A stretch of DNA of 64,000 bases from NCBI RefSeq assembly GCF_054482525.1, contig NZ_CM137006.1, one strand, 5' to 3'. Below, piece after piece: positions 37,175 through 54,058 of this stretch; position 1 is the first letter of the stretch; every line of letters starts with the position of its first letter. The translations under genes and the position numbers were made by a program. The notes below the pieces were generated by a model. It was not told the DNA's origin. It searched no databases and saw only the letters and a list, made by a program, of their open reading frames with translations.

Positions 37175-37211
37175 GGTAACCCCAATGGATTAAAATAGAT
37201 GGCGGAAATAA

Positions 37212-37239
37212 GTATGACGATTTTAAGTATTCGTCATAC
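37212..37239 (-). promoter_or_regulatory. NikR operator in the nikA promoter
   Basis: GTATGA-N16-TCATAC dyad (GTATGAcgattttaagtattcgTCATAC) about 40 bp upstream of nikA. Confidence 0.8.
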
Positions 37240-37284
37240 TGATAACCTGTTCTGGATCAAAAGATGGACAGTCGGGTGGGCGGA

Positions 37285-37872
37285 TCAGTTAACTGAATCG
37301 ATCCATTGCACACTGTCGGCGGAGAGCGTAAAGGGGGTGGGAGTGCAGATCGCCAGGCTTAAATTATCAAGCTGGCAATGGCTGACCGACAGTGATGACT
37401 GATAGGTGCTGTCTACGCTGACGATTTGCCAGGCGCTGCCGCCACGTTGTTTAACGATGGCTTCTTTGCGTGTCCAGATGCGCCAGAACATTTCCAGTTG
37501 CTGATCAGGATGCACGGCGTCCATCTCAGCGTGTTCCCCGAGGCTGAACACCGCGTTCGCCAGCCAGCGCCAGTTGGCGCGCGGGCGAATCACTTCGATA
37601 TCGCAGCCGACTTCGCCTTCATCGCTCAACAGCAGGGCGATATCGTCACCGCTATGGCTTAAGTTGAACCATAGCGGCGTTTCCGGCGCGAATGCAGGTT
37701 TGCCTTGTTCGCCATAGATGATCTCCGGTAGCGGGGAAAGCGTGTGCGAAAGCAATGCACGCCCCGCCAGCCAGCGTTCGCGTCGTGGACCTTGCGGTGC
37801 TTGATCGCGTAAAGCCGGTGGCAGTGGAGCTGCGCTTAAGGTCGAAACTTTCCCCAGAACTATCCGATACAT
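37285..37872 (-). CDS. acpT: 4'-phosphopantetheinyl transferase AcpT
   Basis: Start refined to MYRIVLGKVSTL, giving 195 aa; PPTase motifs (GEQGKPAF, WTRKEAIVKQ); starts 2 nt after the upstream ketosynthase stop, so it is the last gene of the operon. Confidence 0.85.
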   Translation of the reverse strand: MYRIVLGKVSTLSAAPLPPALRDQAPQGPRRERWLAGRALLSHTLSPLPEIIYGEQGKPAFAPETPLWFNLSHSGDDIALLLSDEGEVGCDIEVIRPRANWRWLANAVFSLGEHAEMDAVHPDQQLEMFWRIWTRKEAIVKQRGGSAWQIVSVDSTYQSSLSVSHCQLDNLSLAICTPTPFTLSADSVQWIDSVN

Positions 37873-37873
37873 A

Positions 37874-39103
37874 TCAGGGCCAACGTTTAATGATGATGGA
37901 TGTATTAATGCCACCAAAGGCAAAGTTGTTACTCTGCAAAAACTCACAATCAACTTTGCGGGCTTCATGCATGATGTAATCCAGCGCGCCACAATTCGGG
38001 TCTGGTTTATTCAGGTTTAGCGTAGGCGCAAACCAACCTTCGCGCATCATTTGCAGACTCATCCAGGCTTCGAGCGCGCCACAGGCACCAAGCGTATGAC
38101 CAAAATAACTTTTCAGCGAGGAGAGCGGCACATTATCACCGTAAATGGTTGCTGTCGCCAGACTTTCTGCCATATCACCGCGATCGGTCGCCGTACCATG
38201 CGCTGAAATATAGCCGATATCTTGTGCGCTTAACCCGGCGATTTTCAGCGATTGCTCCATACAATACTGCATGGTTTCGCGCTGCGGCTGGGTAATATGT
38301 GCCGCGTCGCAGTTAGTCGCAAAGCCGACGATTTCACCGTAAATGGTCGCGCCGCGCGCTTTGGCGTGCTCCAGTTCTTCGAGAATGAGCGTACCTGCGC
38401 CTTCACCAATCACCAGCCCGTCGCGGTTTTCATCGAACGGTGAAGGTGTGGTTTTCGGCGCATCATTGTGCTGGCTGGTGGCGAAAAGCGTATCAAATAC
38501 CGCTGCTTCTGAAGGGCATAACTCTTCGGCACCACCAGCAACCATCACCGTTTGATAACCGTGGCGAATGGCTTCCCACGCATAACCGATTGCCTGGCTG
38601 CCGGAGGTACAGGCGCTGGAGGTTGGAATCACCCGCCCGCGCAGGCCGAAAAAGAGGCCAGTATTAACGGCGGTGGTGTGTGGCATCATCTGCACATAGG
38701 TGGTGCCAGTGATGTTGTTCGTGTGCTTTTCCGTCAGCATGGTGGCGAACTCGCTCACCGGGCCGGTACTGCCGGTCGATGAACCGTACGCAATGCCCGT
38801 TTCGCCGCTGGTTAATATCGGATCGCCAATCAACCCTGCCTGCTCTAATGCCAGCTCTGTCGCACGGGTCGACATTTGCGACACGCGGCCCATCGCACGG
38901 ATACGCTTGCGGGTGTAATGCTCCGGCAGCGTAAAATCATCAACAGGCGCGCCAAGCAGGGTGTGCAGACCATCGTAGACCTGCCACTCCGGCATTTTGC
39001 GCACTGCATTCTCATACGCCAGCAGACGCGCGGAAACGTCCTGCCAGTTTTCACCAAAGGCAGTCACGCCGCCCATTCCTGTAATCACTACGCGACGTGT
39101 CAT
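37874..39103 (-). CDS. apeR: Beta-ketoacyl-ACP synthase (FabB/FabF-like), APE cluster, ApeR position
   Basis: 409 aa; active-site context IPTSSACTSGSQAIG and C-terminal HTLGACG. Confidence 0.8.
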   Translation of the reverse strand: MTRRVVITGMGGVTAFGENWQDVSARLLAYENAVRKMPEWQVYDGLHTLLGAPVDDFTLPEHYTRKRIRAMGRVSQMSTRATELALEQAGLIGDPILTSGETGIAYGSSTGSTGPVSEFATMLTEKHTNNITGTTYVQMMPHTTAVNTGLFFGLRGRVIPTSSACTSGSQAIGYAWEAIRHGYQTVMVAGGAEELCPSEAAVFDTLFATSQHNDAPKTTPSPFDENRDGLVIGEGAGTLILEELEHAKARGATIYGEIVGFATNCDAAHITQPQRETMQYCMEQSLKIAGLSAQDIGYISAHGTATDRGDMAESLATATIYGDNVPLSSLKSYFGHTLGACGALEAWMSLQMMREGWFAPTLNLNKPDPNCGALDYIMHEARKVDCEFLQSNNFAFGGINTSIIIKRWP

Positions 39104-39831
39104 AACATCCCTCCGTTGATGGAAATAACCTGGCGGGTGACGTAACCCGCAATATCAGACATTAAATAGCTGGCAAGCCCGGCAACTTCTTCCGCCTGGC
39201 CCATGCGTTTCATGGGGATCATCGACATTGCCTCTTTCAGAGCGCTCTCTTCCATTTCGATCATCCCGGTATCAATAAGCCCCGGCGCGATGCAGTTGAC
39301 GGTGATTTTGCGCTTCGCGAGTTCGATAGCCAGTGCTTTTGTTGCGCCGATAATTCCGGCTTTGGCAGCGCTGTAGTTCACCTGTCCGCGATTGCCCATC
39401 ACGCCGGAAACCGAGGACAGCGTGATGATTCGTCCACCCTGGCGTGCGCCGATCATCGGCATAATGCACGGCTGAATGACGTTGTAGAAACTGTCGAGGT
39501 TGGTGTGGATCACCGCATCCCAGTCGTCATCGCTTAAAGCCGGAAAAGCGGCATCGCGGGCGATCCCGGCGTTACTAACCACGCCGTACCAGGCACCGTG
39601 TTGCGCGATCTCGTGCTCCAGCACTTCCCGACACTGTTCGCGGTTTGCGACGTCGAAACTGAGCAAACGCCCGTTACCACCGTTAGCGACAATGGCATTC
39701 AGCGTTTCCTGAGCGCCTGCGGCGTCACGGTGATAGTGAACGCCAATGTTAAAACCGTCTGCCGCCAATTGGCAGGCGATGGCGCGACCAATGCCTTTGC
39801 TGGCACCAGTAACCAGAACTGAACGACTCAT
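39100..39831 (-). CDS. apeQ: 3-oxoacyl-ACP reductase (SDR, FabG-like), ApeQ position
   Basis: 243 aa; Rossmann motif TGASKGIGRAIA and catalytic YSAAK. Confidence 0.85.
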   Translation of the reverse strand: MSRSVLVTGASKGIGRAIACQLAADGFNIGVHYHRDAAGAQETLNAIVANGGNGRLLSFDVANREQCREVLEHEIAQHGAWYGVVSNAGIARDAAFPALSDDDWDAVIHTNLDSFYNVIQPCIMPMIGARQGGRIITLSSVSGVMGNRGQVNYSAAKAGIIGATKALAIELAKRKITVNCIAPGLIDTGMIEMEESALKEAMSMIPMKRMGQAEEVAGLASYLMSDIAGYVTRQVISINGGML

Positions 39832-40295
39832 CAGGACGCTCCTTGTTGAAACAGGGTGGTAAGTTCTTCCGCGGTCGGCTGGAAGGTGTTAATGCGGCCC
39901 GTTGCTTCGCCGTCGTTGATACTGCACTCAAAACTGCCGAAGCGATCGTCTTGCATCAGGAGTTTGACGGTAATGGTCAGCGTCTGGCCTGCGGGCAGAA
40001 TGCCAGCGGCGCAAAGCAATTCACGTGCGCCCAGTACCATCCCTAACTCAATACTGTTTTTGCCCTGCTGGTGGCGATGCCAGCCAGACCAGACGCCGAC
40101 GGTTTGCGCCATCAATTCAAGGGCAAACCAGCCAGGGAGATTGCCGTCCGGGTCGAGAAACGGTGCCAGTACGCCACTGGGCGAAACCGTCACGCGGCAC
40201 ACCGCGCTGTCATCGCTGACGCTCACCACGTCTTCCAGCAGTAACATGGGCGCGTCGTGGGGCAGATAAGCGCCGGGGGATAAATAGTGGCTCAC
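39831..40295 (-). CDS. apeP: Hotdog-fold 3-hydroxyacyl-ACP dehydratase (FabA/FabZ-like), ApeP position
   Basis: 154 aa; LPHDAPMLLLEDVV... typical of FabA/FabZ-like dehydratases; overlaps both neighbours. Confidence 0.7.
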   Translation of the reverse strand: MSHYLSPGAYLPHDAPMLLLEDVVSVSDDSAVCRVTVSPSGVLAPFLDPDGNLPGWFALELMAQTVGVWSGWHRHQQGKNSIELGMVLGARELLCAAGILPAGQTLTITVKLLMQDDRFGSFECSINDGEATGRINTFQPTAEELTTLFQQGAS

Positions 40296-41470
40296 GAAAC
40301 CCTCCCGAGCAGAATGCTGGCGTTATTGCCGCCAAAGGCGAAGGAATTGGACAGGATCACCGGACGTGCCAGCGGCTGTGGTTGTTCGATAATGCCGCAC
40401 GGTGGCAGCGTGGGATCGCGCGGCGACAGGCTGAAGTCCTGAGCGAGCAGCGGTAAATCACGCTGTAAAATCAACATGCTGATTGCCGCCTCGGTAATGC
40501 CCGCCGCGCCCAGCGTGTGTCCGGTCAAATGTTTGGTGGAACTGCAAGGTACGCGTTCGCCAAACAGGGCGTTAACCACCATCGATTCAATCTGGTCGTT
40601 GAGTTGTGTGGCGGTACCGTGCAGGTTGATATAGCCGACGTCATCTGGCGTAAGCTGCGCATCGGTCAGCGCCTGGTTAATGGCGCGGATCGCCCCTTCG
40701 CCCTGCGGATGCGGGGCCGAAATATGGTAAGCGTCGCTCGATTCACCAACGCCCAGTAACGCGATGGGCTGCGGTTCACGGGTTAATAACATCAGTCCCG
40801 CCCCTTCGCCAATGGTGATACCTGCGCGGTCACGACCAAACGGCTGACATAAGGTGGGCGAGAGCGATTCGAGGCTGTGAAAACCGTTAATCGGCATCCG
40901 GCTCAGAGTATCTGCGCCACCCACAATGGCGGCATCGACCAGCCCCGCTTCGATAAGCCTGCGCCCGCTGATCATCGCTCTGGCGCTGGAAGAGCAAGCG
41001 GTTGAAAGGGTATAAGCCGGGCCATCGAGCGCCAGCCAGTGGCTGAGAAAGCGCGACGGATCGCCAAGTTCCTGTTGCGCGTAGTGCCATGTGGTGCTCG
41101 GCTGTCCGTTGGTGCGCAGGTTAACGTGCGTGTCGCCCTCATGCAGGCCGGAGGTGCTGGTGCCAAGTACAATCGCGATGCGCTCGTGACCATATTTCGC
41201 GATAGCGTCATCAACCTGCGGCTGGATCTGCGCCAGCGCCGCCAGCAGGATCTGATTGTTGCGCGAGCGGTGCGCAGCGAATTTTTCGGGGATAAGCGGA
41301 AGCTCGCCATCCACGCCAGCCAGGACCGCCTGCGGATGCCCCTGCAACCAGCCTGCGCGCGGACGCATGCCGGGAGCGACACCGCGAGTCAGGTTGGCTG
41401 CGATCTCATCAAGGTTATTTCCCAGGGCGTTGATCATGCCGACGGCGGAAATATAAATCATATCAGTCAC
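40292..41470 (-). CDS. apeO: Beta-ketoacyl-ACP synthase, ApeO position
   Basis: 392 aa; active-site Cys context YTLSTACSSSARAM; HLTGHTLGAAG near the C-terminus. Confidence 0.8.
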   Translation of the reverse strand: MTDMIYISAVGMINALGNNLDEIAANLTRGVAPGMRPRAGWLQGHPQAVLAGVDGELPLIPEKFAAHRSRNNQILLAALAQIQPQVDDAIAKYGHERIAIVLGTSTSGLHEGDTHVNLRTNGQPSTTWHYAQQELGDPSRFLSHWLALDGPAYTLSTACSSSARAMISGRRLIEAGLVDAAIVGGADTLSRMPINGFHSLESLSPTLCQPFGRDRAGITIGEGAGLMLLTREPQPIALLGVGESSDAYHISAPHPQGEGAIRAINQALTDAQLTPDDVGYINLHGTATQLNDQIESMVVNALFGERVPCSSTKHLTGHTLGAAGITEAAISMLILQRDLPLLAQDFSLSPRDPTLPPCGIIEQPQPLARPVILSNSFAFGGNNASILLGRVS

Positions 41471-42047
41471 CTAAGTATTGAATGGTGATGTGGTATTTAA
41501 AGACATGCTGCTCAATGCTGATTGGCACGCGTTTGCCCTTGCGATTCAAATAGGTGATTTCCGTGACCAGCTTGCCGCTGGCGTTACGCAGCTCGCGTTT
41601 GTCACCGTTGTCGCGAAGTGTCCAGCCAGTGGGAAGTTGCGGCTGCCAGGCGCTAATCGGCCAGTGGCTGAGCATCACGTCAGCCAGTACCTGACTTGCG
41701 GGCGGTAACTGTGGGACGACGATCGATTGCTCGGCGCGTAGCCCTTGCGCATCGTAGGTCACCAGAAACAGGCGAATGCCGACCGACGACAGTCCGGCAA
41801 GGGTGATTTTCTGGTCGTCGGCGTTAAGCATCACTAGCAGCGACTGGGTTTTGCCGTTGAAGCTGCCGGTCAACAGTTGCTGGGAATTGACGGCGGGTGA
41901 AATCCCCGGCGCAGGCAGCGTGATGCGCGTGCCAGGTTGCAGCCACGCTTGCGGGCGGCCTTCCTGTTCTGGTTGCGAGTGGCTACAGCCGGTGAGGATA
42001 AGCGTAGCGGTCAGGGCGAACGCTCGCCAGAATGTGGGTTTGATCAT
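41463..42047 (-). CDS. apeN: Lipoprotein (DUF3261-like), ApeN position
   Basis: 194 aa with lipoprotein signal peptide MIKPTFWRAFALTATLILTGC. Confidence 0.65.
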   Translation of the reverse strand: MIKPTFWRAFALTATLILTGCSHSQPEQEGRPQAWLQPGTRITLPAPGISPAVNSQQLLTGSFNGKTQSLLVMLNADDQKITLAGLSSVGIRLFLVTYDAQGLRAEQSIVVPQLPPASQVLADVMLSHWPISAWQPQLPTGWTLRDNGDKRELRNASGKLVTEITYLNRKGKRVPISIEQHVFKYHITIQYLGD

Positions 42048-44362
42048 TTTTTTGTTCTCTTTTTATCGGGCATGGCCAGCGGCGAAAGCAGGAAGGCGGT
42101 GAAAATACCGCTCACCAGCACAATGCCAAAACTGCTGATGGCCTGGGTGGCGCTGAATACCAGCATTCCCAGCGTCAGCAAGGTGGTGAGCATTGCCAGC
42201 GTGATCGCCAGTAGCGAAGTTAATGGTGTGCCGCGCGGATTACTGAAAAACAGCGTGTAGTTGATGCCGATGCCAAGCACCAGTACCAGCGCCAGCAGCG
42301 AAAAGAGATTCACCGCCTGCCCGCTCATCGCCAGCACCGCCAGACCGCAGCCCAGTGAAAGCACCGAAGGCACCAGGCTGATAAACCCTTTGCGCCAGCC
42401 GAGGCGGGCCACTGCGCCGCAGGCAATTACTGCCAGCGCCACCAGCAACAAGCCGGTTAACACATAACGGTAAAGTGCGAACAATTCATCAAAGGTGTTT
42501 TTGCGATCAACCCAGGCAATGCCACAAGGGTAATAGCTGGAGATTTCCTGTAGCGCCGCGCTATTTTTAACCCCTTCAACCGGCACCAGCACGCCGCTTG
42601 CGCCATTTTCCAGCGTCAGCCACAGCAGACGCCAGCCTTCACTGGCGGGGCTTGCCAGCCATTCATCAACCTTCACTGGCATGGCGTTAAGATCCGGGTT
42701 CACCGCCGTCAGCCCGGCATTTTGCAGTGCTTTTGTTACCGTCGGGGCAGCCGTTTTCAGCAGGTCTAAATCTTCCTCCTGCCGCGCCAGGGAGTTCAGC
42801 GGAATGGTGCGGTAGTTGCTGATAAGGCCGTCTTTTTTCGCTTTCTCCAGCGAGGTGGTAAATGTCTCCAGCCGTCCCAAGGTTTGCTGTGACGAATCGC
42901 CGTAAACCACAAACCATTTTTGATCGACGCTTTGTCCGGTCAGGGCGGTGATGGCTTTCTCCTGCGCCAGAATATGCTGCGGTAGCGCCTGTAACTGCGA
43001 GATATCGTCATCGACGCACAGCATTGACATCCCCGCCAGCGAAAACAGCGCCAGCGCGACGGGCAGACCCCGCGACAGTTTTTTATTACGCCGCCACGCT
43101 GCCAGCCAGCGCAGCATCAGCGCCATCGCTGGAACCGGACGCACCGGCAGGCCACGGCACAGCCACGGATGCCAGAACAGGACGGTCAGACAGGAGGCGC
43201 TCAACCCGACGGCGGCAAAAATCGCCATCTGGCGAATGCCGGGGAAGGGGGCGAGCATCATAATCAGATACGCCGCCACGGTGGTGAGCAGCGCCAGCAG
43301 CAGGGCATTGCGCACTTTCGCCAGGCTTTGCCACGGCGAAACGTCATTGCCGTGCACCATCCGCTCGGTGAGGTAATAGAGCGTGTAGTCAGCGGAAATG
43401 CCGATAACGCTCATGCTCATCACCAGCGTCATCAGGTGTAATTCGCCGAAAATCAACAAGGTGGCGACCGTTCCCGCCAGCGCGCCGATGCCGATGGAAA
43501 TCACACACATCAGCAACGGGCGCAAAGAGCGGAACACCGCCACAATCAGCAATATCACCCCCAGCAGCGTTGCCACGCCCAGGGTGGAGATATCCTGCTT
43601 CGCCTGTTGGCTGGCGTAATCGCTGTAAAACACCGTGCCGCGTGAGAGCAACTGAGCCTGCGGGTAACGCGTTTTCAGATCCTTTTCCAGCGTATTCAGG
43701 GTCGTGATGAGCTGGTGGGTTTGCTGCATATCAAACGACGATCCCGCCAGTTCGCCGTGCAGCAGATACCAGTAGTTGCCCTGGGGATCCTGCGTCACCA
43801 GCCAGCCGTCCATCAGCCGCAAACGCTGGCCGTTTTTCGCCATCGCCAGCTGCGAGCCACGCATTAACATCAGCGGATCGTTTTGCAGCTCCTTACCGCT
43901 TACCCCGGAGAACGCAGAATAAAGCTGGGAGAGGATCCACTGCGCCTGCGCTTCGCCGCCGTTTTGCAGGCGCGCGCGGGTGTCGGGGTCAATCAGACCG
44001 TTGCGATGCTGCCAGAAAAACGCTCCCCACGCCTGCTGGCTGGCGGCATCCATTGGCCCTTTAACGTCGCCGAGCGCAGCGGATTTTTGCAGCAGCGTCA
44101 GCCACTCCTGAGCGACCCTGGGATTAGCCTCTTTACCGGGGCTGACCAGCCACACCAGTTGGCGGTCCAGACGCTGCATAAAGCCGTCATTCAGCGCTGG
44201 GGGAATATCGCCCATCGCCTGTTTGGGTAACATAGCCAGTACGCTACTGTTCAGTCGTGATTGCGGCAACAGGATCAGCAACGCCGCCGCCATGACCAGG
44301 CAGACGATCCCCCATAACAGCGCCGGGCGTTTACTGGGCGGCAAAACGTTGGCGTTCGTCAT
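42044..44362 (-). CDS. apeM: MMPL/RND-superfamily membrane exporter, ApeM position
   Basis: 772 aa with two blocks of TM helices separated by soluble domains. Confidence 0.75.
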   Translation of the reverse strand: MTNANVLPPSKRPALLWGIVCLVMAAALLILLPQSRLNSSVLAMLPKQAMGDIPPALNDGFMQRLDRQLVWLVSPGKEANPRVAQEWLTLLQKSAALGDVKGPMDAASQQAWGAFFWQHRNGLIDPDTRARLQNGGEAQAQWILSQLYSAFSGVSGKELQNDPLMLMRGSQLAMAKNGQRLRLMDGWLVTQDPQGNYWYLLHGELAGSSFDMQQTHQLITTLNTLEKDLKTRYPQAQLLSRGTVFYSDYASQQAKQDISTLGVATLLGVILLIVAVFRSLRPLLMCVISIGIGALAGTVATLLIFGELHLMTLVMSMSVIGISADYTLYYLTERMVHGNDVSPWQSLAKVRNALLLALLTTVAAYLIMMLAPFPGIRQMAIFAAVGLSASCLTVLFWHPWLCRGLPVRPVPAMALMLRWLAAWRRNKKLSRGLPVALALFSLAGMSMLCVDDDISQLQALPQHILAQEKAITALTGQSVDQKWFVVYGDSSQQTLGRLETFTTSLEKAKKDGLISNYRTIPLNSLARQEEDLDLLKTAAPTVTKALQNAGLTAVNPDLNAMPVKVDEWLASPASEGWRLLWLTLENGASGVLVPVEGVKNSAALQEISSYYPCGIAWVDRKNTFDELFALYRYVLTGLLLVALAVIACGAVARLGWRKGFISLVPSVLSLGCGLAVLAMSGQAVNLFSLLALVLVLGIGINYTLFFSNPRGTPLTSLLAITLAMLTTLLTLGMLVFSATQAISSFGIVLVSGIFTAFLLSPLAMPDKKRTKK

Positions 44363-44936
44363 CGGTCAGTTGCGCTGGCGTCAGTTGATGTTGGGTAAGA
44401 GCGATATCGGTGCGATCGCCCTGTTTATCATTAAGCTGAATGCTCTCCAGATAGGTTTGCCCGGCGAGATCGATGGTGTTGAAAATTTTATCCAGCGGCG
44501 TGGTGGTCGGCGTCAGGCGCAGTGTCCAGCGGCCTTCGCCTTTGTCAGCAAATTCGACGCGGAAGTTTTGTTCCAGCACTTTGCGATCGGCCTGGAACAG
44601 CGCGCGCAGCAGGTGGTTAAACTGGAACATCTGCGGGTTATTTTCTGCCGTGATAATTTGCGGCGGCTGACCGTTGATCACCTGCACCATGCGTTTATCG
44701 TCCAGCAATAGTTGCATGGGGAACGGTGAGGTTTGATCCCACAACAGCCCCTGGTCGCGGGCGATCAACATCTGGCCCTGAGATCGTAGCGGCTGCGGCA
44801 GATCTTTAATCGTCCGGGTTTGATCGAAATGGGCGCGGATCACTGGCTGTTCGGTAAAGCGTTGCTGAAGATCGTCCAGGTTCAGGGCGCTCACAAACGG
44901 GCTAATCAGCAGCGCCAGCAGCGGTAAAAATTTCAT
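44331..44936 (-). CDS. apeL: LolA-like outer-membrane lipoprotein carrier protein, ApeL position
   Basis: 201 aa with signal peptide MKFLPLLALLISPFVSALNLDDL; ATGA overlap with the upstream gene. Confidence 0.65.
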   Translation of the reverse strand: MKFLPLLALLISPFVSALNLDDLQQRFTEQPVIRAHFDQTRTIKDLPQPLRSQGQMLIARDQGLLWDQTSPFPMQLLLDDKRMVQVINGQPPQIITAENNPQMFQFNHLLRALFQADRKVLEQNFRVEFADKGEGRWTLRLTPTTTPLDKIFNTIDLAGQTYLESIQLNDKQGDRTDIALTQHQLTPAQLTDDERQRFAAQ

Positions 44937-45355
44937 GGTTTGACTCCCATGCGTTCAAACAGAATATCGGGGCTGACAAAGCACAGTTCGCGGCTTTGCT
45001 CGTCGACCGCGACCTGAATGGTGTATCCGGTGGTGGCGCGTTTTCCCGTTTCGGCATCGAAAATCTGATAGCCAATCCGCAGACGGTTTTCGAACTCTTC
45101 GATATGCGCACGCACGCGGATGCGTTGCTCAAAGGTGAGGGCGTGGCGATATTTCACCCTCGCATCGACCACTGGCCACAAATAACCGGACTCTTTCATC
45201 TGCCGATAGCCGTAATTGAACTGGTTGAGCAGCGCCTCGCGGGCCACTTCAAAGTAGCGAAAATAGTTACCGTGCCAGGCCACGCCCATCATATCGACGT
45301 CGTGAAAGGGAATGGTCAGCTCGACTTCAGCGGTAAATCGGGGATCGTTAAGCAC
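44933..45355 (-). CDS. apeK: Hotdog-fold acyl thioesterase (4HBT family), ApeK position
   Basis: 140 aa; N-terminal ...IPFHDVDMMGVAWHGNYFRYFEVAREALL typical of 4HBT/YbgC-type thioesterases. Confidence 0.7.
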   Translation of the reverse strand: MLNDPRFTAEVELTIPFHDVDMMGVAWHGNYFRYFEVAREALLNQFNYGYRQMKESGYLWPVVDARVKYRHALTFEQRIRVRAHIEEFENRLRIGYQIFDAETGKRATTGYTIQVAVDEQSRELCFVSPDILFERMGVKP

Positions 45356-45358
45356 CCT

Positions 45359-47035
45359 TTACTCCTTGTCCTGGACTTCCGGCAGTTGCCAGAAATCGAA
45401 AAAATTAAACCAGTCGAGGGGGGACTGGAGCGCGTAATATTCCAGACGCGCGGCGTAATGATCGATAGCGTTTTGCAGCGCCTGCTGGCGTTCGCCACGC
45501 GGCAACAGCAGCGGGTCGGCAAAGGTTTCGCAGTGAATATGCAGCTTGCCGTGCTGGCGCAGCGCGAAAATCAGATTCACCGGGCAGCGCAAAATAGACG
45601 CAAGAATAAACGGCCCCTGCGGGAAGGGCGCAGGCTGGCCCATAAACGGACTCCAGCAGACTCGCCAGTCGCCGCCGCGTTGCGGGTTGACGGCGATGCG
45701 GTCACCGACAATCGCCACCCATTCGCCGTTATCCAGCTTCTCTTTGAGCAGGATGGCGGTTTCTGGGCCGATATCCGTCACCGGGAGCAGGTTGATGCCT
45801 GCCTGCGGGGCCATCTCCTGCATTATCTGTTTAAAGCGTTGGGCGTTTTCGCTAAACACCAGCGCGTTAATGGTTTTGTAGCCCTGAATTTTTGCCAGCG
45901 CCCGGCACACTTCCACATCGCCAAGATGCGAGGCCAGCAGCAATTTGCCGCGCGGATCGCTGACGTTAAGTGCCGCTTCTGCGCCTGGTGCAAACAGCAC
46001 ATCACGCCCGAGTTGCAGCTCGCCGCGCCAGCTGGCGATTTTGTCGAGCATGGCGTTGCCGAAACGTAGAAAGTGCTGATAGCTGTTGATTTTTGCTGCC
46101 AGTGGTTGTTGTTGGCGCACACGGGCGAGCCAGGCTTGCGACGCTTTACGCGCACGAGCAGCGGTGAGCCAGTAGACGCCCACCACCGGGTAAAGCAGCG
46201 CGGTAAACGCAGTTCTTCCCAGCAGACGCCAGACCAGCAGCATCAGGCGCATTCCCCATAATCCTTTCACTTCGCTCTGCCGCGCCCAGTGGCTGGAAGA
46301 GCTGCGCATCAGCAGTGAAGGAATACGCGGCAACATGCCGAAAAACAGACGTGTGTGCATGAGCGAGATGCGGACGTTATCTTTCAGGGCATCAAAATGC
46401 GAAAGCCCGTCCAGTGGATAGGTGACGCGGGTCGGCACGAAATAGCTGGTGTTTCCCTGCCAGTAGAGGCGCACCATCACTTCAGTGTCGAAATCCATCC
46501 GCTTGCCGATGGTGGCGTATTTTGCCAGTTGCAGCGTTGGCGCAACCGGATAAACGCGAAAGCCGCACATGCTGTCTTTCAGTTGCAGGGAGAGCGTTTC
46601 GATCCATACCCAGACGTGGGTGACCCAGCGCCCGTACAGCCGTGAGCGGGGGATGGAGTCATCGTAAATCGGCTGGCCGGAGATCAGCGCCGCAGGCTGC
46701 TGTTCAGCGAGTGCCAGCAGTTTAGGGATGTCTTCAATCGCGTGCTGACCGTCAGCATCCACCTGTACCGCATGGCTGAAGCCCGCGTCTGCCGCCGCCT
46801 GTAAGCCGCGCATTACCGCCGCGCCTTTGCCTGCGTTTTCTGCCAGGCGAATTAAGGTCACGCCAGGCTGTTCGGCAACCAGATTATCCAGTTGCTGTTG
46901 CGTGGCGGCATCGCTGCCGTCATCCACCACAATACAGGGCAGATTAAATGGCTTAAGACGCGCCAGCACGCCCGGCATCATCGCACCGTGGTTGTAGCAG
47001 GGGATCAACACACAGGGAGAAAAGTTTACCGACAT
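45359..47035 (-). CDS. apeJ: Bifunctional glycosyltransferase family 2 / lipid A-type acyltransferase-like protein, ApeJ position
   Basis: 558 aa; N-terminal GT2 motifs (CIVVDDGSD, VQVDADGQH) and a C-terminal acyltransferase-like domain. Confidence 0.7.
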   Translation of the reverse strand: MSVNFSPCVLIPCYNHGAMMPGVLARLKPFNLPCIVVDDGSDAATQQQLDNLVAEQPGVTLIRLAENAGKGAAVMRGLQAAADAGFSHAVQVDADGQHAIEDIPKLLALAEQQPAALISGQPIYDDSIPRSRLYGRWVTHVWVWIETLSLQLKDSMCGFRVYPVAPTLQLAKYATIGKRMDFDTEVMVRLYWQGNTSYFVPTRVTYPLDGLSHFDALKDNVRISLMHTRLFFGMLPRIPSLLMRSSSSHWARQSEVKGLWGMRLMLLVWRLLGRTAFTALLYPVVGVYWLTAARARKASQAWLARVRQQQPLAAKINSYQHFLRFGNAMLDKIASWRGELQLGRDVLFAPGAEAALNVSDPRGKLLLASHLGDVEVCRALAKIQGYKTINALVFSENAQRFKQIMQEMAPQAGINLLPVTDIGPETAILLKEKLDNGEWVAIVGDRIAVNPQRGGDWRVCWSPFMGQPAPFPQGPFILASILRCPVNLIFALRQHGKLHIHCETFADPLLLPRGERQQALQNAIDHYAARLEYYALQSPLDWFNFFDFWQLPEVQDKE

Positions 47036-47379
47036 AGGCGGATCTTCCCGCTACTGGCGGTGTGGCGGGCGTCACCGTCGTGACGCTGATAGCTAAAGCT
47101 CAGAATCTGGCGTTCTTCCTGCCAGTTAAGCGTGAGCGTGACGCGGTTTTCCGGCAGCAACGGGGACTGGAATTTGATGTTCTGAATAGAGTGAAAACGC
47201 CAGCCAGGCGCGAGCAGGGCAAGCGCGTAGCTCATCGCCCAGTCGATTTGTGCAACTCCTGGAAGTAACGGCTGCACGGCAAAATGACCGCGAAACCAGA
47301 ACAGATCCGCCCTGAGATGCAGAACAATTTCAAGGTGATTCGCTTGTGCCTGATGGCGCTCGATTTCATGGGGCTTCAT
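47026..47379 (-). CDS. apeI: Hotdog-fold dehydratase (FabZ-like), ApeI position
   Basis: Start refined to MKPHEIERH (AGGAG RBS 8 nt upstream); contains FRGHFAVQPLLPGV. Confidence 0.7.
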   Translation of the reverse strand: MKPHEIERHQAQANHLEIVLHLRADLFWFRGHFAVQPLLPGVAQIDWAMSYALALLAPGWRFHSIQNIKFQSPLLPENRVTLTLNWQEERQILSFSYQRHDGDARHTASSGKIRLCR

Positions 47380-48727
47380 GAAATAACTCCTGTAATTGCG
47401 CATAGACACGCTTGTTCATACTGTTTACTGGCATTTCATCAATAACGCGCCAGTAACGCGGAATAGCAACTGGCTCCAGGGTCGGGCGCAGTAATCGCCG
47501 CCAGGTCATTTCCTGGCTATGCCCGCCGCCGTTCTGCCATTGCAGATGAGCTTCGTCATCCAGCACCAGCAAAACGCCGATGCTCTGACGCCCGCCGCGC
47601 GTAACGGGAACTGCCGCCGCCTCGCGAATGCCGTCCAGCGCCAGCAGACGTTGTTCTACTTCCTGGAGTGAAATACGTTTTTCTTCAATCTTAACGATGC
47701 GCCCACGACGCCCCATCAGATGGAACTGACCGTCCTGGCTAAACTGCAAGAGATCGTCGAGCAACAGGCCGTTATCTTCCGCTATCAGCGGTGAAAAGAG
47801 GCGAAATGCTTCACCTTCGACCTGGAAGTGCATACCTGGAAAGGGCCGCCAGCGGCGTTGCTCTTGTTCGCGGTAACGCCAGGCAATGACGCCGGTTTCC
47901 GTGCTGCCGAAGATTTCATCAGGCCAGACGCGCAGCCAGCTCTCGGTATATTGTACGTCCTGCCACGGCAGCTCACCGCCAGCAGAGAGAAGCACCTGAA
48001 CAGGCGGCGGGGATAGCTGAGCATCCAGACGCTTCAAAAATGCCGGGCTGCTGATGAAGATATAGCGATGCTGGTGACTCAATGCGGCAAACTGTTCGAC
48101 ATACCAGAGCATGGCGGCGTGCAGCGGTAATCCCAGCGCCATTGGCAGGAAAACGCGAAAAGTCAGGCCGTACAAATGCTGCGGCAAAACGGAACCGACG
48201 ACACGACATCCGGCAAGACGTGCGCCTAATCGTTCAGCCAGCAGTTCTGCTTCACGGTCCAGCAAATGAACAGGCTTAATTACCCGCTTTGGCTGCCCCG
48301 TAGAACCGGAGGTAAACAGCTCGATATAAGCGTCTGGCGCTATAGCGGCAAAGGTGAATGATTGTGTCGCGACTTGTGGGGAACTTGCTACCAACAGCAA
48401 TGAACCTTGCCAGTTAAGTTCGCTGTCGCTAAGTACACCATCGAACAGTTCACGTTGCTCATTAAGCTGGATGACACGGTTATGCCCCGGAAGCACCGGC
48501 GTTTTTCCGGCGTGTAGCGTGGCGAGCAGGGCAACGATAAATAGATAGCTGTTCTCAAAGCACAGCGCCCAGCGTTCACCCGGCTGTTGCTGCAAGCGGC
48601 AGATAAGTTGCGCGACATCGTGACGCAAATCGCCCAGTGTCCACGAGCTTTCGTCCAGCCACGCAATGGGCGTGTCATCAGGGCGTGGCGCAGTCAGCCA
48701 GCGTGCAAGCGGTAAGGTCTGCTTCAT
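47366..48727 (-). CDS. apeH: AMP-dependent synthetase/ligase (acyl/aryl-CoA or acyl-ACP ligase), ApeH position
   Basis: AMP-binding signature LFTSGSTGQPKRV; start refined to MKQTLPLARWL, giving an ATGA overlap with the upstream gene. Confidence 0.8.
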   Translation of the reverse strand: MKQTLPLARWLTAPRPDDTPIAWLDESSWTLGDLRHDVAQLICRLQQQPGERWALCFENSYLFIVALLATLHAGKTPVLPGHNRVIQLNEQRELFDGVLSDSELNWQGSLLLVASSPQVATQSFTFAAIAPDAYIELFTSGSTGQPKRVIKPVHLLDREAELLAERLGARLAGCRVVGSVLPQHLYGLTFRVFLPMALGLPLHAAMLWYVEQFAALSHQHRYIFISSPAFLKRLDAQLSPPPVQVLLSAGGELPWQDVQYTESWLRVWPDEIFGSTETGVIAWRYREQEQRRWRPFPGMHFQVEGEAFRLFSPLIAEDNGLLLDDLLQFSQDGQFHLMGRRGRIVKIEEKRISLQEVEQRLLALDGIREAAAVPVTRGGRQSIGVLLVLDDEAHLQWQNGGGHSQEMTWRRLLRPTLEPVAIPRYWRVIDEMPVNSMNKRVYAQLQELFHEAP

Positions 48728-49305
48728 GAGCGATCTCTTTTTATCACCTGACGGCGCACCAGCCATTCACCTGCCATTAACGTTCCCATCAACAAATAAG
48801 CAATCATGCCGTTCCAGGCGGTCCATAACGACATATCGCCATAAAGCGCGGTAAAGAGGGCAATTCCGCCGTTAATGATGAAAAAGCCGCACCAGATTTG
48901 CGTGACACGGCGGGTATAGCGCACGCCCTTTTCCGGGAGGTCTGGCTCCTGCAAACGTGCCAGCCGCTCAACTATCGGCATTGTCGACCACAGCGAACCG
49001 CCAAAAACCGCCAGCATGATCGCGTTAACCACTACCGGGTAAAACAGCAGTAGCTGGTGCGTTTTCAACAGAAAGCTGGCGACACACAATGCGATGCCCA
49101 CGACAGCGACGATTTGTGTGACGGCTTGTAGCGGCCCCGCCCGGCGACGGGTCTGGCGCAGGCGCAACAAAAGCAGCAACGCTATTAGCGGCAACAACCA
49201 GTGCAGGCCGTTATGCGCCAGGCCAAACCAAATCACAAACGGCCAGGCGAGCAGCAATAATCCAGTCAGCAGCTTAATCATCGGTAGCGAGCGAATGCCC
49301 GACAT
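48724..49305 (-). CDS. apeG: Small integral membrane protein, ApeG position
   Basis: 193 aa with about five hydrophobic helices. Confidence 0.6.
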   Translation of the reverse strand: MSGIRSLPMIKLLTGLLLLAWPFVIWFGLAHNGLHWLLPLIALLLLLRLRQTRRRAGPLQAVTQIVAVVGIALCVASFLLKTHQLLLFYPVVVNAIMLAVFGGSLWSTMPIVERLARLQEPDLPEKGVRYTRRVTQIWCGFFIINGGIALFTALYGDMSLWTAWNGMIAYLLMGTLMAGEWLVRRQVIKRDRS

Positions 49306-49309
49306 CAGA

Positions 49310-49561
49310 TCAGGCTTCTTGTAGCAGGCGTTCTACAGCCTCTACGACATCCTGAACTGTGCGCACTGCTTTAAACTCTTCCGGCTTGATTTTCTTACCG
49401 GTTTTCTTTTGCAGGTGCACAATCATGTCAACGGCGTCGATGCTGTCCAGTTCCAGATCTTCGTACAGGCGCGCTTCAGGTTTGATGTCCTGCGGATCGA
49501 TTTCAAACAGCTTAACCAGCAGGGCTGAGACTTCCTGATAGACGGTTTGTTGTTCTGTCAT
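49310..49561 (-). CDS. apeF: Acyl carrier protein, ApeF position
   Basis: 83 aa; phosphopantetheine-attachment context LELDSIDAVDM. Confidence 0.85.
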   Translation of the reverse strand: MTEQQTVYQEVSALLVKLFEIDPQDIKPEARLYEDLELDSIDAVDMIVHLQKKTGKKIKPEEFKAVRTVQDVVEAVERLLQEA

Positions 49562-49572
49562 GATGGCTTTCC

Positions 49573-49830
49573 TCAGGCACGTTGCGCAGCAATGAAAGAG
49601 GCCAGAGTGGCGACGGAGAAAAAGTGCTGACGCATCTCTTCACTTTCCGCAGAAAGTACAACGCCATATTGATTTTTCACTGCCAGCCCCAGTTCCAGGG
49701 CATCGATGGAATCCAGTCCTAAACCGTCGCCGAACAGCGGCGCATCGGTCTCGATATCATCAGGAGTCAACTCGTCCAGATTGAGGGTACTGATGATGAG
49801 GTTTTTAATTTCCAGATAAAGCGCTTGCAT
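49573..49830 (-). CDS. apeE: Acyl carrier protein, ApeE position
   Basis: 85 aa; attachment context LGLDSIDALEL. Confidence 0.85.
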   Translation of the reverse strand: MQALYLEIKNLIISTLNLDELTPDDIETDAPLFGDGLGLDSIDALELGLAVKNQYGVVLSAESEEMRQHFFSVATLASFIAAQRA

Positions 49831-50626
49831 TATTTATTCCTGAGAGAGGTAAACAACCTTGTTGTAATTGAAGCAAAAGATGCCGGTTTAACTGCCTTGC
49901 TGCCAGCGCCGGTTCTTGTGAAGTTGCATCGTAAAATTTATTGATTTCAACCCGACCATGGACTTCAACCGTAAAAAACGGCCGGTCAGGTGGAACGTCA
50001 TACCATTTACTTTGTTTATCCAGCAGATGCTCGCTACAGCCGATCGTCACGATGCGTAAATCGCTGGCACAGCGCACGGCAATATTCGCCGCCCCGCGCT
50101 GCAGCGTCATTTTTTCACCGGGCTTCGTTCGCGTGCCTTCGGGGAAAATCAGGATAGTGTCACCCTGTGCCAGTCGCTGTTGGCAGCGGGGTAACAGGGT
50201 TTCAGCTTCGCTGTTGATTAAATAATCTGCCGCCCGCACGACGCCGCCAAGAAAAGGATTTTTTAACAGCGCGCTTTTCACCAGGCAGTCAGTTTCTGGC
50301 ATGACTGACGCCAGCAGCACGTAATCGATCAGCGTGGGATGATTGGCTACGACGAGGCAACCGCGTTCCTGACGTAAAATTTCAGCGCCATCAATACGAT
50401 AATCCAGCACGCCAAGCCCTTTCGCGACAGTTAAAAACAGGCGAAAACTGGCGGCAATGCTGCGACGCGCCAAACGACGGCGGCGGGAAGTATCCCACAC
50501 CAAAACTAACAATATGTTAAACCACACGACAGAAAGCAGCAGGCCGCCGAGACCAAACAGGGCAAAACATAACCCGGTCATGACCAGTCGCCAGGTCCAC
50601 TCCAGACGTGACATCAGCTTACTCAT
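49805..50626 (-). CDS. apeD: Lysophospholipid/1-acylglycerol-3-phosphate-type acyltransferase, ApeD position
   Basis: HX4D motif NHPTLID and N-terminal TM helices; start refined to MSKLMSRLEW (ATGA overlap). Confidence 0.75.
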   Translation of the reverse strand: MSKLMSRLEWTWRLVMTGLCFALFGLGGLLLSVVWFNILLVLVWDTSRRRRLARRSIAASFRLFLTVAKGLGVLDYRIDGAEILRQERGCLVVANHPTLIDYVLLASVMPETDCLVKSALLKNPFLGGVVRAADYLINSEAETLLPRCQQRLAQGDTILIFPEGTRTKPGEKMTLQRGAANIAVRCASDLRIVTIGCSEHLLDKQSKWYDVPPDRPFFTVEVHGRVEINKFYDATSQEPALAARQLNRHLLLQLQQGCLPLSGINNASALSGN

Positions 50627-51345
50627 CTGCGGCTCCAGCGCCATTGCACGCGCTCGCCAGGCAGTGAAAATGCGTCTGCATTTTGTAAATAGTGCTGTAA
50701 AAACAACATGCTTTGCGGCAGTGATGTTTCATTGCCCGCAATGGCTGACTGCGTTTCACATTGCCAGTCATCGCCAGCTTCAATCACCAGCGCGACGGCG
50801 TACGGCCAGGTCGGCATTTCTGATGGCAGTTGTGGGTGATAAAACTCAGGCAGAAAGCCATCAAAATCGACCATCAGCACGCGCTGGTATCCCGCTTGTA
50901 ACAGGCTAAGCACTTCACACAAACCTTGCTGGAAAGTGTCGCGACCAGCAGAAAGCGATGACGAAACGATCGGCTGTTTGGCCGCAATGGTCAGGTTACC
51001 CACGGAAGAGTTGTGTACGGAGAGCGCGAAGTCGGTCGGAGAAAGCGCCTGTTCAGTTGCCAGTGCATGAACAATGCGGTAATTGCGCTCCAGTTCGCCA
51101 TGACGACTGGTATACAAAACGGCGTCTGGCTGATGGCGGCGTAGCATTGCCAGACCGCATTCAACAGCCAGTTTGCTGCCTGAACTAAGGCGGCGGGCGG
51201 TCATCATTGGCAGTTCACTTAATTTTGCCAACGGCGCGGCAGGGTCAATCGCCCACGGCTGGCGCGACCATGCTTGCCATTGCTGCGCTTCGCTAAGTCC
51301 AGGCGCCAGTGCCTGCCAGTCGGTAATATTTAATGTAAATTTCAT
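50623..51345 (-). CDS. apeC: Truncated ketosynthase-like protein without a canonical active-site Cys (chain-length-factor-like), ApeC position
   Basis: About 240 aa, with SVHNSSVGNL where a KS would carry its catalytic Cys; start refined to MKFTLNI (the track start is a TTG). Confidence 0.6.
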   Translation of the reverse strand: MKFTLNITDWQALAPGLSEAQQWQAWSRQPWAIDPAAPLAKLSELPMMTARRLSSGSKLAVECGLAMLRRHQPDAVLYTSRHGELERNYRIVHALATEQALSPTDFALSVHNSSVGNLTIAAKQPIVSSSLSAGRDTFQQGLCEVLSLLQAGYQRVLMVDFDGFLPEFYHPQLPSEMPTWPYAVALVIEAGDDWQCETQSAIAGNETSLPQSMLFLQHYLQNADAFSLPGERVQWRWSRR

Positions 51346-51385
51346 CAACGCGCGCCCGCGGTAAACCAAAATTATTAAGTGACGA

Positions 51386-52453
51386 TTATTTCTTTTGGCA
51401 TATCAAAAGTGTATGCCCAACGCCTAAATTATCGTGGCGCTCTGCTACCTGGAATCCTGCTTTATTCAGATAGTCGTAAAATTTCTCTGCACTATAGAAA
51501 CGGCTGTTACCGTTTGCCATGCAGGTAAAATAAAGTGAGGACGCGTTCAGGCTAAATGATGCTGCTTCAAACCGCTGCGCATCCCAGAACAACTCCATGA
51601 TGCAAACTTTTGCGCCAGGCTTCATTACGCTGGCGATTTTGCTGAGTATGCTAATTATTTGTTCGGGTGAAAAACAGTCTAAAAATTGGCTCATCCACCA
51701 GATATCAGCCTCGCCCGGTAATGGGGCATCGCTTAGCATATCCACCGCATGGAAATCTATGCGATCAGAAAAACCTGCATTCGCGATATTTTCTTTCGCT
51801 AGTACGATTTGTTGTGGCAGATCTAATAACGTCACGGCGATGTTTTCATTGTATTTGCAGCAACGCAAAGCCCACTTACCCGTATTGCCGCCTACATCGT
51901 ACAATGTTGTGGGGTTGTTGGCGAATACATAAGGCAGTGCGGCGTTAAATGCGCCATCTGAATAGTAATGATCAAACGCAAACCAGCTTTCACGAGCGGC
52001 GTCTGGTAATTGTGAAAGTGCCGGATATATCGTCGGCCAGTCGCCAAATACTTTTAACCCGGACGGTTTTCCTTCATTGAGTGAATCGGCGAGGAAGAAG
52101 AGCCCCTGGTAACAGACATCCTGGGTGAAATCCATATTCACGCGAGTCATAGTGTCATGCAGGAGGTAATGACCGATTTTCGCCAGGTAATACATTCCCT
52201 CTTTACAGGTAATAATTCGCCCGCTTAAGCCCATATCTAACAGAACGCTGGCCGCATATTCGTTGATATGGCTATGTTCGGTGATATCAGCCAGCGTTGC
52301 GCCATGTTTGCCTTGCCGATCCAGATATGAAAGTACACCCGCATTACGTAGGCAGAGTGCTGTTTGAAAAAGCATAGGGGCAAAGGCAATGCGTTGAGCT
52401 TCGGTAATCGCATCCAGTGCGCTAAGAGAATCCTGTTCGTACATGTTGGGCAC
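51386..52453 (-). CDS. apeB: SAM-dependent O-methyltransferase, ApeB position
   Basis: 355 aa; methyltransferase fold with YDVGGNTGKWA-type SAM-binding glycine motif; track start is a GTG, first ATG three codons later. Confidence 0.75.
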   Translation of the reverse strand: MPNMYEQDSLSALDAITEAQRIAFAPMLFQTALCLRNAGVLSYLDRQGKHGATLADITEHSHINEYAASVLLDMGLSGRIITCKEGMYYLAKIGHYLLHDTMTRVNMDFTQDVCYQGLFFLADSLNEGKPSGLKVFGDWPTIYPALSQLPDAARESWFAFDHYYSDGAFNAALPYVFANNPTTLYDVGGNTGKWALRCCKYNENIAVTLLDLPQQIVLAKENIANAGFSDRIDFHAVDMLSDAPLPGEADIWWMSQFLDCFSPEQIISILSKIASVMKPGAKVCIMELFWDAQRFEAASFSLNASSLYFTCMANGNSRFYSAEKFYDYLNKAGFQVAERHDNLGVGHTLLICQKK

Positions 52454-52512
52454 AACCTGTTAAGAGGGAATTAAATTATTATCGGACCGCAGCGGCCCGA
52501 CTTTAGGAAGAA

Positions 52513-52890
52513 TTATAAATCTGCGCCCGCTGACAAATTCAGTTGAATATCTTTGTCGAGATTGCGGACCCAGCGATTGTAGTTTTTATGAATTTGTCCG
52601 CCTGACGCTTGTAGGTTCTGGCTATTTTCATAATTGATATCGTAGCTGGATGCCGTGTAGTTAATGCGAATTTCGGCTGAATGATCGCGTGACTGTTGAC
52701 GTGCTTTAATTACGCCTTGTCCGGCTTCGGACATAATCCATTTGCGTTCAACGCCAGCTTTCAGAATCGCTTTTTTCACTTGTTCCTGGGTATGACCAGC
52801 GCTGACGGTTGAGTGAACCTGATCAATTGGCGCAGTACGCGCGCAACCCGCTAAAGCACCCACAACAGCAATAGCCGCAAACCATTTCAT
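52513..52890 (-). CDS. Small lipoprotein, first gene of the operon
   Basis: MKWFAAIAVVGALAGCART (lipobox LAGC), 125 aa; the track ORF start at 52902 gives a 4-residue extension; IS1 lies 14 bp upstream. Confidence 0.6.
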   Translation of the reverse strand: MKWFAAIAVVGALAGCARTAPIDQVHSTVSAGHTQEQVKKAILKAGVERKWIMSEAGQGVIKARQQSRDHSAEIRINYTASSYDINYENSQNLQASGGQIHKNYNRWVRNLDKDIQLNLSAGADL

Positions 52891-52895
52891 GTAAT

Positions 52896-52904
52896 GTCTC
52901 ATTA
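52896..52904. repeat. IS1 target-site duplication, left copy
   Basis: GTCTCATTA directly abutting the IS1 end; identical copy at 53673-53681. Confidence 0.9.
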
Positions 52905-52919
52905 GGTAATGACTCCAAC

Positions 52920-53423
52920 TTATTGATAGTGTTTTATGTTCAGATAATGCCCGATGACTTTGTCATGCAGCTCCACCGATTTTGAAAACGACAGCGACTT
53001 CCGTCCCAGCCGTGCCAGGTGCTGCCTCAGATTCAGGTTATGCCGCTCAATTCGCTGCGTATATCGCTTGCTGATTACGTGCAGCTTTCCCTTCAGGCGG
53101 GATTCATACAGCGGCCAGCCATCCGTCATCCATATCACCACGTCAAAGGGTGACAGCAGGCTCATAAGACGCCCCAGCGTCGCCATAGTGCGTTCACCGA
53201 ATACGTGCGCAACAACCGTCTTCCGGAGCCTGTCATACGCGTAAAACAGCCAGCGCTGGCGCGATTTAGCCCCGACGTATCCCCACTGTTCGTCCATTTC
53301 CGCGCAGACGATGACGTCACTGCCCGGCTGTATGCGCGAGGTTACCGACTGCGGCCTGAGTTTTTTAAGTGACGTAAAATCGTGTTGAGGCCAACGCCCA
53401 TAATGCGGGCGGTTGCCCGGCAT
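52920..53423 (-). CDS. insB: IS1 transposase InsB (expressed as InsAB' by -1 frameshift)
   Basis: 167 aa ORF within IS1, in the -1 frame relative to insA. Confidence 0.9.
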
Positions 53424-53617
53424 CCAACGCCATTCATGGCCATATCAATGATTTTCTGGTGCGTACCGGGTTGAGAAGCGGTGTAAGTGAACTGCAGTTG
53501 CCATGTTTTACGGCAGTGAGAGCAGAGATAGCGCTGATGTCCGGCGGTGCTTTTGCCGTTACGCACCACTCCGTCAGTAGCTGAACAGGAGGGACAGCTG
53601 ATAGAAACAGAAGCCAC
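53342..53617 (-). CDS. insA: IS1 protein InsA
   Basis: 91 aa starting [40 protein letters not shown] (zinc-finger-like). Confidence 0.9.
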
Positions 53618-53672
53618 TGGAGCACCTCAAAAACACCATCATACACTAAATCAGTAAGTTGGCAGCATCACC

Positions 53673-53681
53673 GTCTCATTA
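53673..53681. repeat. IS1 target-site duplication, right copy
   Basis: GTCTCATTA, identical to 52896-52904. Confidence 0.9.
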
Positions 53682-54039: not shown

Positions 54040-54058
54040 GCCTGCTCAGGAGGTGCTA

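Follow-up and report, generated by a model that had tools for sequence, protein, structure and literature searches.

A probable acpT-linked copy of the Escherichia coli aryl polyene cluster with an IS1 element inserted before apeA

We analysed a 64,000-nucleotide stretch of DNA, hereafter the window, from contig NZ_CM137006.1 of NCBI RefSeq assembly GCF_054482525.1. Positions 37285-52890 of the window very probably hold the acpT-linked copy of the Escherichia coli aryl polyene (APE) cluster, the type found in O-island 138 (OI-138) of O157:H7, with apeA to apeR followed by acpT. The identification draws on the gene order of the CFT073 cluster, on matches to PDB entry 6QSP, on the ApeI-like and ApeP-like Pfam families and on catalytic motifs. 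The system is already known and not new (Cimermancic 2014; De Lay & Cronan 2006; Grammbitter 2019/2020; Johnston 2021). What goes beyond the preliminary description of this DNA is the presence of two APE lineages in E. coli, a sharp divergence between them in ApeH, ApeI, ApeG and ApeA, and an IS1 element in front of apeA.

The 18 ape genes of the window stand in the order of the experimentally characterised APE_Ec cluster of CFT073 (c1204-c1186). That cluster has been described as 18 genes, apeA-apeR, spanning 15.5 kb in one orientation with overlapping frames (Table 1, PMC8253772), and 14 of its 18 proteins are 93-100% identical to those of the window, which bears out the APE architecture that the preliminary description had recognised. 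By BLAST, positions 37285-52890 align over their full length with the chromosome of E. coli PCN033 at 100.0% identity. With the insertion excluded, two single-nucleotide polymorphisms (SNPs) separate PCN033 from the window in about 27.6 kb (about 99.99% identity), and of these a single one, a synonymous change in apeR, falls within the cluster. An O157 chromosome with the same 19 genes (island OI-138) is about 96.6-96.7% identical to the window cluster at the nucleotide level by BLAST, and all of its proteins, the ApeH, ApeI, ApeG and ApeA alleles included, are 94-100% identical. No paper joining PCN033 with aryl polyene turned up in our literature searches.

Mapping the RefSeq coding sequences of PCN033 onto the window confirmed to the base the boundaries first proposed: the acpT stop codon ends at position 37285, and the apeA start codon begins at 52890. 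Each of the 19 coding sequences lies on the minus strand, as had been claimed, and each has a start and a stop codon and no internal stop. Gene identity, order and intactness, like the homologies and catalytic motifs given below, are direct observations on the window cluster. The earlier count of eighteen genes ending in acpT was short by one, the 18 ape genes plus acpT making 19. Every item in the earlier inventory was recovered, and apeG (48724-49305) was missing from it. Ten junctions were said to show ATGA-type or longer overlaps, and this number holds when RefSeq start codons are used: six overlaps are of 4 nt (ATGA or GTGA) and four are longer (10, 14, 26 and 32 nt). One further junction overlaps by 1 nt, and the others are gaps of 1, 1, 3, 4, 11, 40 and 68 nt. 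The start codon of acpT lies 1 nt past the apeR stop in the same direction, so that acpT does sit directly behind the last ketosynthase gene.

The genes predicted to build the polyene chain are well matched. The product of apeO (40292-41461) is a putative elongating ketosynthase with a Cys-His-His triad and matches chain A of 6QSP (E 1.5e-172, 67% identity). Its partner, the chain-length-factor-like truncated ketosynthase encoded by apeC (50623-51345), matches chain B (E 7.8e-93, about 60% identity). We take 6QSP to be the crystallised ApeO:ApeC heterocomplex of Xenorhabdus doucetiae, the molecule names in the PDB entry being generic. ApeC consists of 240 residues and covers the ketosynthase N-terminal domain only (Pfam Ketoacyl-synt_2); in our reading of the sequence it has HNSS at the place of the ketosynthase catalytic Cys motif. 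It is the truncated ketosynthase-like protein of the preliminary description, and the two ketosynthases said there to have an active-site Cys are ApeO and ApeR. The latter (apeR, 37874-39103), predicted to be the initiating ketosynthase, also has the Cys-His-His triad, scores 778 bits against NF006587 (cutoff 470) and matches PDB entries 4EWG (E 2.6e-164) and 7F27 (E 6.4e-158), both deposited as beta-ketoacyl synthases, 7F27 under the name 3-oxoacyl-ACP synthase.

Reduction and dehydration are provided for by three genes. ApeQ (39100-39831) is a 3-ketoacyl-ACP reductase of the FabG2 type (TIGR01831, 475.8 bits, cutoff 338.85) in which the Y-x3-K motif is present, and two hotdog dehydratases are encoded by apeI (47026-47379; ApeI-like, Pfam PF22818, E 8.5e-38) and apeP (39831-40295; ApeP-like, Pfam PF22817, E 1e-38). 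RefSeq annotation and NCBIfam matches turned up no gene for an enoyl reductase in the set of 19 coding sequences, which agrees with the synthesis of a polyene and not of a saturated chain. Above the NCBIfam cutoffs were the two full-length ketosynthases, FabG2, both acyl carrier proteins (ACPs) and AcpT. NCBIfam returned no match for ApeA, ApeC, ApeG, ApeI, ApeN or ApeP; with the sequences concatenated into one query, Pfam identified ApeC, ApeI, ApeN and ApeP, leaving ApeA and ApeG with no match in either library.

The carrier proteins are encoded in tandem by apeE (49573-49830) and apeF (49310-49561). Both have the LDSID motif with a modifiable serine, and they match NF006617 and NF003757 above cutoff. 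The gene for the 4'-phosphopantetheinyl transferase (PPTase) expected to activate them, acpT (37285-37872), codes for an Sfp-type enzyme that scores 394.6 bits against NF007676 (cutoff 174). The preliminary description rightly noted that K-12 AcpT is orphaned from carrier-protein substrates encoded in an O157:H7 island. The window cluster is the O157-type, acpT-linked copy. AcpT of O157:H7 EDL933 activates the ApeE and ApeF homologs in vitro, as related in PMC8253772 on the authority of De Lay & Cronan 2006. The candidate for starter loading is apeH (47366-48727), a predicted adenylate-forming enzyme of the AMP-binding family at its expected place in the operon and with its SGSTGQPK motif intact. 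It is a deeply diverged allele, and a PDB sequence search gave no ApeH relative at E 1e-10 or better. The role assigned to ApeH is to load the aryl starter, 4-hydroxybenzoate, onto ACP (PMC8253772).

ApeB (51386-52444) has the Pfam Methyltransf_2 domain with a dimerisation domain and scores 474.7 bits against the NCBIfam FlxJ-family methyltransferase model, below the cutoff of 560. Methylation of the aryl head group by this S-adenosylmethionine-dependent enzyme is a role taken from PMC8253772 and bioRxiv 10.1101/2020.12.19.423268. The earlier label of O-methyltransferase suits the Pfam family and does not suit the product, for the known APE head is 4-hydroxy-3-methylphenyl (bioRxiv 10.1101/2020.12.19.423268), and its ring methyl points to C-methylation.

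The genes for release, anchoring and export complete the set. These comprise apeK (44933-45355), a thioesterase of the 4HBT/YbgC type; apeD (49805-50626), a PlsC/LPLAT-type acyltransferase with an HX4D motif (Pfam PF01553); and apeJ (45359-47035), which has a glycosyltransferase family 2 (GT2) domain at its N terminus followed by some 330 C-terminal residues. The Pfam GT2 match is confined to the first 130 residues of ApeJ, and residues ~231-558 (window 45359-46340) matched nothing in Pfam or NCBIfam. This C-terminal portion, the 'acyltransferase' half of the literature, has one hydrophobic segment (residues 474-492). The export module of MMPL exporter, LolA-like carrier and two lipoproteins named in the preliminary description is present as ApeM, ApeL, ApeA and ApeN. 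ApeM (42044-44362) is a member of the MMPL/RND superfamily with 12 hydrophobic segments and an MMPL/HAE3/HpnN-like transporter match. ApeL (44331-44936) belongs to the Pfam LolA family, its hydrophobic residues 2-20 being read as a signal peptide. ApeN (41463-42047) is a DUF3261 lipoprotein with the lipobox LTGC, called LolB-like in PMC8253772, and ApeA (52513-52890) is a small lipoprotein of 125 residues with the lipobox LAGC. ApeG, a polytopic membrane protein of 193 residues, has about five hydrophobic segments and appears in the literature as COG4648. The roles of ApeD, ApeJ, ApeF, ApeM, ApeG, ApeL and ApeN are proposals made in bioRxiv 10.1101/2020.12.19.423268.

We propose a pathway on the published model. 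AcpT would first convert apo-ApeE and apo-ApeF to their holo forms by phosphopantetheinylation, and ApeH would adenylate 4-hydroxybenzoate supplied by UbiC and load it straight onto ACP. ApeR would carry out the first condensation, after which the ketosynthase/chain-length-factor pair ApeO:ApeC would extend the chain with malonyl units; in each round ApeQ would reduce and ApeI or ApeP dehydrate, with no enoyl reduction, to give a conjugated hexaene. Ring methylation by ApeB would yield the 4-hydroxy-3-methylphenyl head group. ApeK, ApeD and ApeJ would then free the chromophore and join it to a glycerophospholipid/sugar anchor, and ApeG, ApeM, ApeL and ApeN, perhaps with ApeA, would move the lipid to the outer membrane, where it would appear as a yellow pigment, scavenging reactive oxygen species and furthering biofilm growth.

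This chemistry and the cellular role would carry over to the window cluster from experiments in CFT073 and Xenorhabdus. When expressed in K-12 Top10, the CFT073 cluster gives a cell-bound yellow pigment, and most deletions of its core genes abolish that pigment (PMC8253772). There, apeE is essential for pigment, whose formation survives in ΔapeA and in part in ΔapeF, ΔapeD and ΔapeJ (PMC8253772). In Xenorhabdus the chromophore is a hexaene whose head group is 4-hydroxy-3-methylphenyl, and it is identical to the product that hydrolysis gives in CFT073; the Xenorhabdus end product is an APE-N-acetylgalactosamine-phosphate-glycerol bearing two chains, one a C26:5 conjugated acyl chain and the other C14 or C16 (bioRxiv 10.1101/2020.12.19.423268). 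By analogy with the CFT073 and X. doucetiae clusters, the window cluster would make a cell-bound aryl polyene pigment.

Among known systems, the closest is OI-138 of EDL933 with acpT (De Lay & Cronan 2006, as cited in PMC8253772), which has the same site between yhhT and acpT/nikA, the same 19 genes and the same overlaps; that its AcpT modifies the two ACPs of the island is related in PMC8253772. O157 differs from the window by strain-level SNPs only, plus the IS1 before apeA, which is present in the window and absent from O157 and from RefSeq PCN033. The APE_Ec cluster of CFT073 (c1186-c1204; Cimermancic 2014; PMC8253772) agrees in gene order and overlaps and is the version with a measured product, essential genes, protection from reactive oxygen species and a biofilm phenotype. 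It differs in location, lying on a pathogenicity island ~16 kb downstream of an integrase gene and not at acpT, and in having no PPTase gene adjacent; it is indeed described as a cluster without a PPTase (PMC8253772). The apeA-R cluster of X. doucetiae (Grammbitter 2019; bioRxiv 10.1101/2020.12.19.423268) shares the gene set, the naming and homologous ApeO:ApeC (67% and 60%), and has the same chromophore as CFT073. It belongs to another genus, also makes a dimethyl variant, and is the only system for which the full lipid structure is known.

More distant are the flexirubin and xanthomonadin clusters of Bacteroidetes and Xanthomonas, which share an aryl starter, type II polyketide synthase/fatty acid synthase-like polyene extension and LolA-like/RND export. 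ApeB, ApeQ and ApeL of the window match the FlxJ, FlxB and LolA2_flexi models below the NCBIfam cutoffs (474.7/560, 266/340 and 55/125, respectively). Flexirubin and xanthomonadin systems use other starters, other tailoring (halogenation, dialkylresorcinol ester) and other gene orders.

Several points weigh against the APE assignment. Pigment chemistry for the acpT-linked lineage was not found in the literature searched, every pigment experiment that we found having been done with the CFT073 type. Between the lineages, ApeH is only 66%, ApeI 72%, ApeG 82% and ApeA 64% identical. In the window IS1 parts apeA from its native upstream region, and a consensus scan gave no consensus-grade outward promoter at the IS1/apeA junction. 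Finally, there is little or no homology behind the roles given to ApeA, to ApeG and to the C-terminal part of ApeJ.

The insertion itself is clear. IS1 (52905-53672, minus strand) is 768 bp long, has insA and insB in the same direction as the ape genes and stops 14 nt short of the apeA ATG, on its upstream side. Its 23-nt terminal inverted repeats lie at 52905-52927 and 53650-53672, and a 9-bp target-site duplication, TAATGAGAC in the minus-strand reading, flanks it with a proximal copy at 52896-52904 and a distal copy at 53673-53681. It holds open reading frames of 91 and 167 amino acids, and the element is about 98% identical to annotated IS1A and IS1B copies. The 5,426 complete E. coli genomes gave no single full-length alignment to the insertion. 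On its far side is the AT-rich native upstream region of apeA, 327 bp on the minus strand (53682-54008), which is presumed to bear the promoter and now lies 777 bp from the gene. Next to this region, just past the yhhT stop codon, is a hairpin with 13-nt arms followed by a T-rich tract, TTTGATTTG (54009-54039, minus strand). It is likely the yhhT terminator, and this would imply that the ape operon has a promoter of its own within 53682-54008. One weak sigma-70-like match is found there (53873-53845), no better than chance. Scanned with promoter and terminator consensuses, positions 37000-54400 contained 14 promoter-like sites, compared with 10.8 ± 3.0 in shuffled controls, and no convincing native or IS1-hybrid promoter.

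IS1 insertions are classically polar in either orientation, and IS1 ends can reportedly create hybrid promoters (Prentki et al. 1986). To judge from the layout, the operon has probably lost its link to the native promoter through the element, and expression in the window strain is probably reduced or rewired, the likeliest outcome given the polarity of IS1 and the lack of a good outward promoter at the junction. That this leaves an intact cluster silenced or cut off from normal regulation, so that the locus would be an island in the early stage of decay and not an active pigment pathway, is possible, at clearly less than an even chance. It is favoured by the position of the element with its 9-bp duplication between apeA and the native upstream region, by the polarity of IS1, by the lack of a strong outward-reading promoter match at the junction, and by two further strains in which IS1 has struck this short region independently. 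In JX21CE8, IS1 lies in the apeA-yhhT intergenic region (2087-2784 of the extracted locus); in Eco_23-3511, it splits apeA (1291-2445 of the extracted locus). Independent insertions near apeA suggest either a local hotspot or repeated selection on operon expression. Yet all 19 reading frames of the window are intact, and the element is co-oriented with the operon, so that transcription may read through from an IS1 promoter or from farther upstream. Hybrid promoters are said to arise at IS1 ends, candidate internal promoter-like matches are present, though at chance level, and apeA itself is dispensable for pigment. On the O157 version the literature searches gave one relevant item, a microarray table in which seven OI-138 genes (Z4851-Z4861) of EDL933 are raised 2-6 fold by an rpoS mutation (PMC2907692); RpoS thus appears to be a negative regulator of the acpT-linked cluster.

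About 10% of complete E. coli genomes, O157:H7 and the window strain among them, carry the acpT-linked lineage (about 566-569 of 5,426). At least 80% of the cluster is present in ~820 of these 5,426, and its apeH comes in two alleles, the window type in ~566 genomes and the type of CFT073 and Nissle 1917 in ~259. Allele type follows chromosomal location, the window type being linked to acpT and the CFT073 type lying on the island. In SCU-171, a CFT073-type cluster is found next to cdiBA. The acpT-linked type is thus the commoner, yet the published chemistry and genetics come from the CFT073/Nissle island type. Differences between the lineages are concentrated in two sharply bounded blocks, one at ~47080-48900 (apeI, apeH and the 3' end of apeG) and one at ~52200-52905 (the 5' end of apeB, and apeA). 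Nucleotide identity to CFT073 is 53-85% in 60-nt windows within both blocks, 63-75% for the apeI-apeH-apeG block compared with over 93% elsewhere, and 90-100% in 300-nt windows outside them. Both apeH alleles are about equally far (71-76%) from Citrobacter and Klebsiella homologs. Recent import of either allele from another genus was considered, and with both alleles about equally distant no donor was identified.

It is tempting to speculate that the acpT-linked lineage, with a recombinant apeI-apeH-apeG block, uses another starter or dehydration partner and makes a distinct pigment lipid, the recurrent IS1 insertions at apeA reflecting selection that turns the pathway off or on; we consider this combined scenario improbable. 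We judge it very improbable, too, that the lineage makes an aryl polyene with another aryl starter, methylation pattern or chain length. The low identity of ApeH and ApeI beside neighbours at 93-100%, the sharp edges of the block that holds them, the allele that tracks location in hundreds of genomes and the chemistry missing from the literature searched all count in favour of a different product. Against a different product stands X. doucetiae, whose ApeO and ApeC are just 67% and 60% identical to those of the window and which nevertheless makes the same 4-hydroxy-3-methylphenyl hexaene as CFT073. Divergence on this scale therefore does not by itself imply different chemistry. ApeH homologs across Enterobacterales also form a continuum of 65-76% identity, and the proteins that determine methylation and chain length (ApeB, ApeC, ApeO and ApeR) share 94-99.5% identity with their CFT073 counterparts.

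That the genes serve ordinary housekeeping fatty-acid or lipid A metabolism, the outcome named at the outset as one that would overturn the APE assignment, has next to no chance of being right and is already effectively refuted: the ketosynthases, ketoreductase, dehydratases and ACPs do also match generic FabF, FabG, FabZ/FabA and AcpP models, and RefSeq product names are generic, but homology searches found the best matches in APE-specific structures and families, no enoyl reductase gene was found, the orthologous CFT073 cluster gives pigment once placed in K-12, and about 85% of complete E. coli genomes, K-12 included, do without the cluster, which therefore cannot be essential lipid metabolism.

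The chromosomal site of the acpT-linked APE cluster can be compared with that of strains that lack it. In K-12 MG1655 the order is yhhT, 54 bp, acpT and nikA, in agreement with the earlier statement that K-12 holds acpT alone at this position, and the contiguous apeR-acpT junction is found in 569 of 5,426 complete E. coli genomes. The alignment of an island-free strain with the window stops at 37892, which is 20 nt before acpT begins, and is taken up again at 54063, within the final codons of yhhT. The strain keeps the last 19 nt of apeR before acpT (window 37873-37892), with 38 unrelated nt in place of the island; this junction lies at positions 3589-3646 of its extracted locus. Such a pattern would agree with the K-12-type lineage having undergone a deletion or rearrangement, and does not prove it. 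The 38-nt replacement of K-12-type strains has no match anywhere in the window, so the mechanism of the rearrangement cannot be read from the sequence alone. Island-free strains also differ from the window at the very end of yhhT, in its last codons. Past nikR, at the far end of the nik operon, the window has a hicA/hicB toxin-antitoxin pair at ~31285-31732; rhsB follows nikR in K-12 MG1655, which makes the nikR side a second strain-variable junction of the window. No RNA family was found in 36000-56000 with Rfam at gathering thresholds.

For annotation, the gain is that 19 genes that have been labelled generically 'FabF/FabG/hypothetical' can be named apeA-apeR and acpT. For the biology of strains that carry the acpT-linked cluster, its product would be an outer-membrane antioxidant pigment lipid, one that may guard the cell against oxidative stress and favour biofilm formation.

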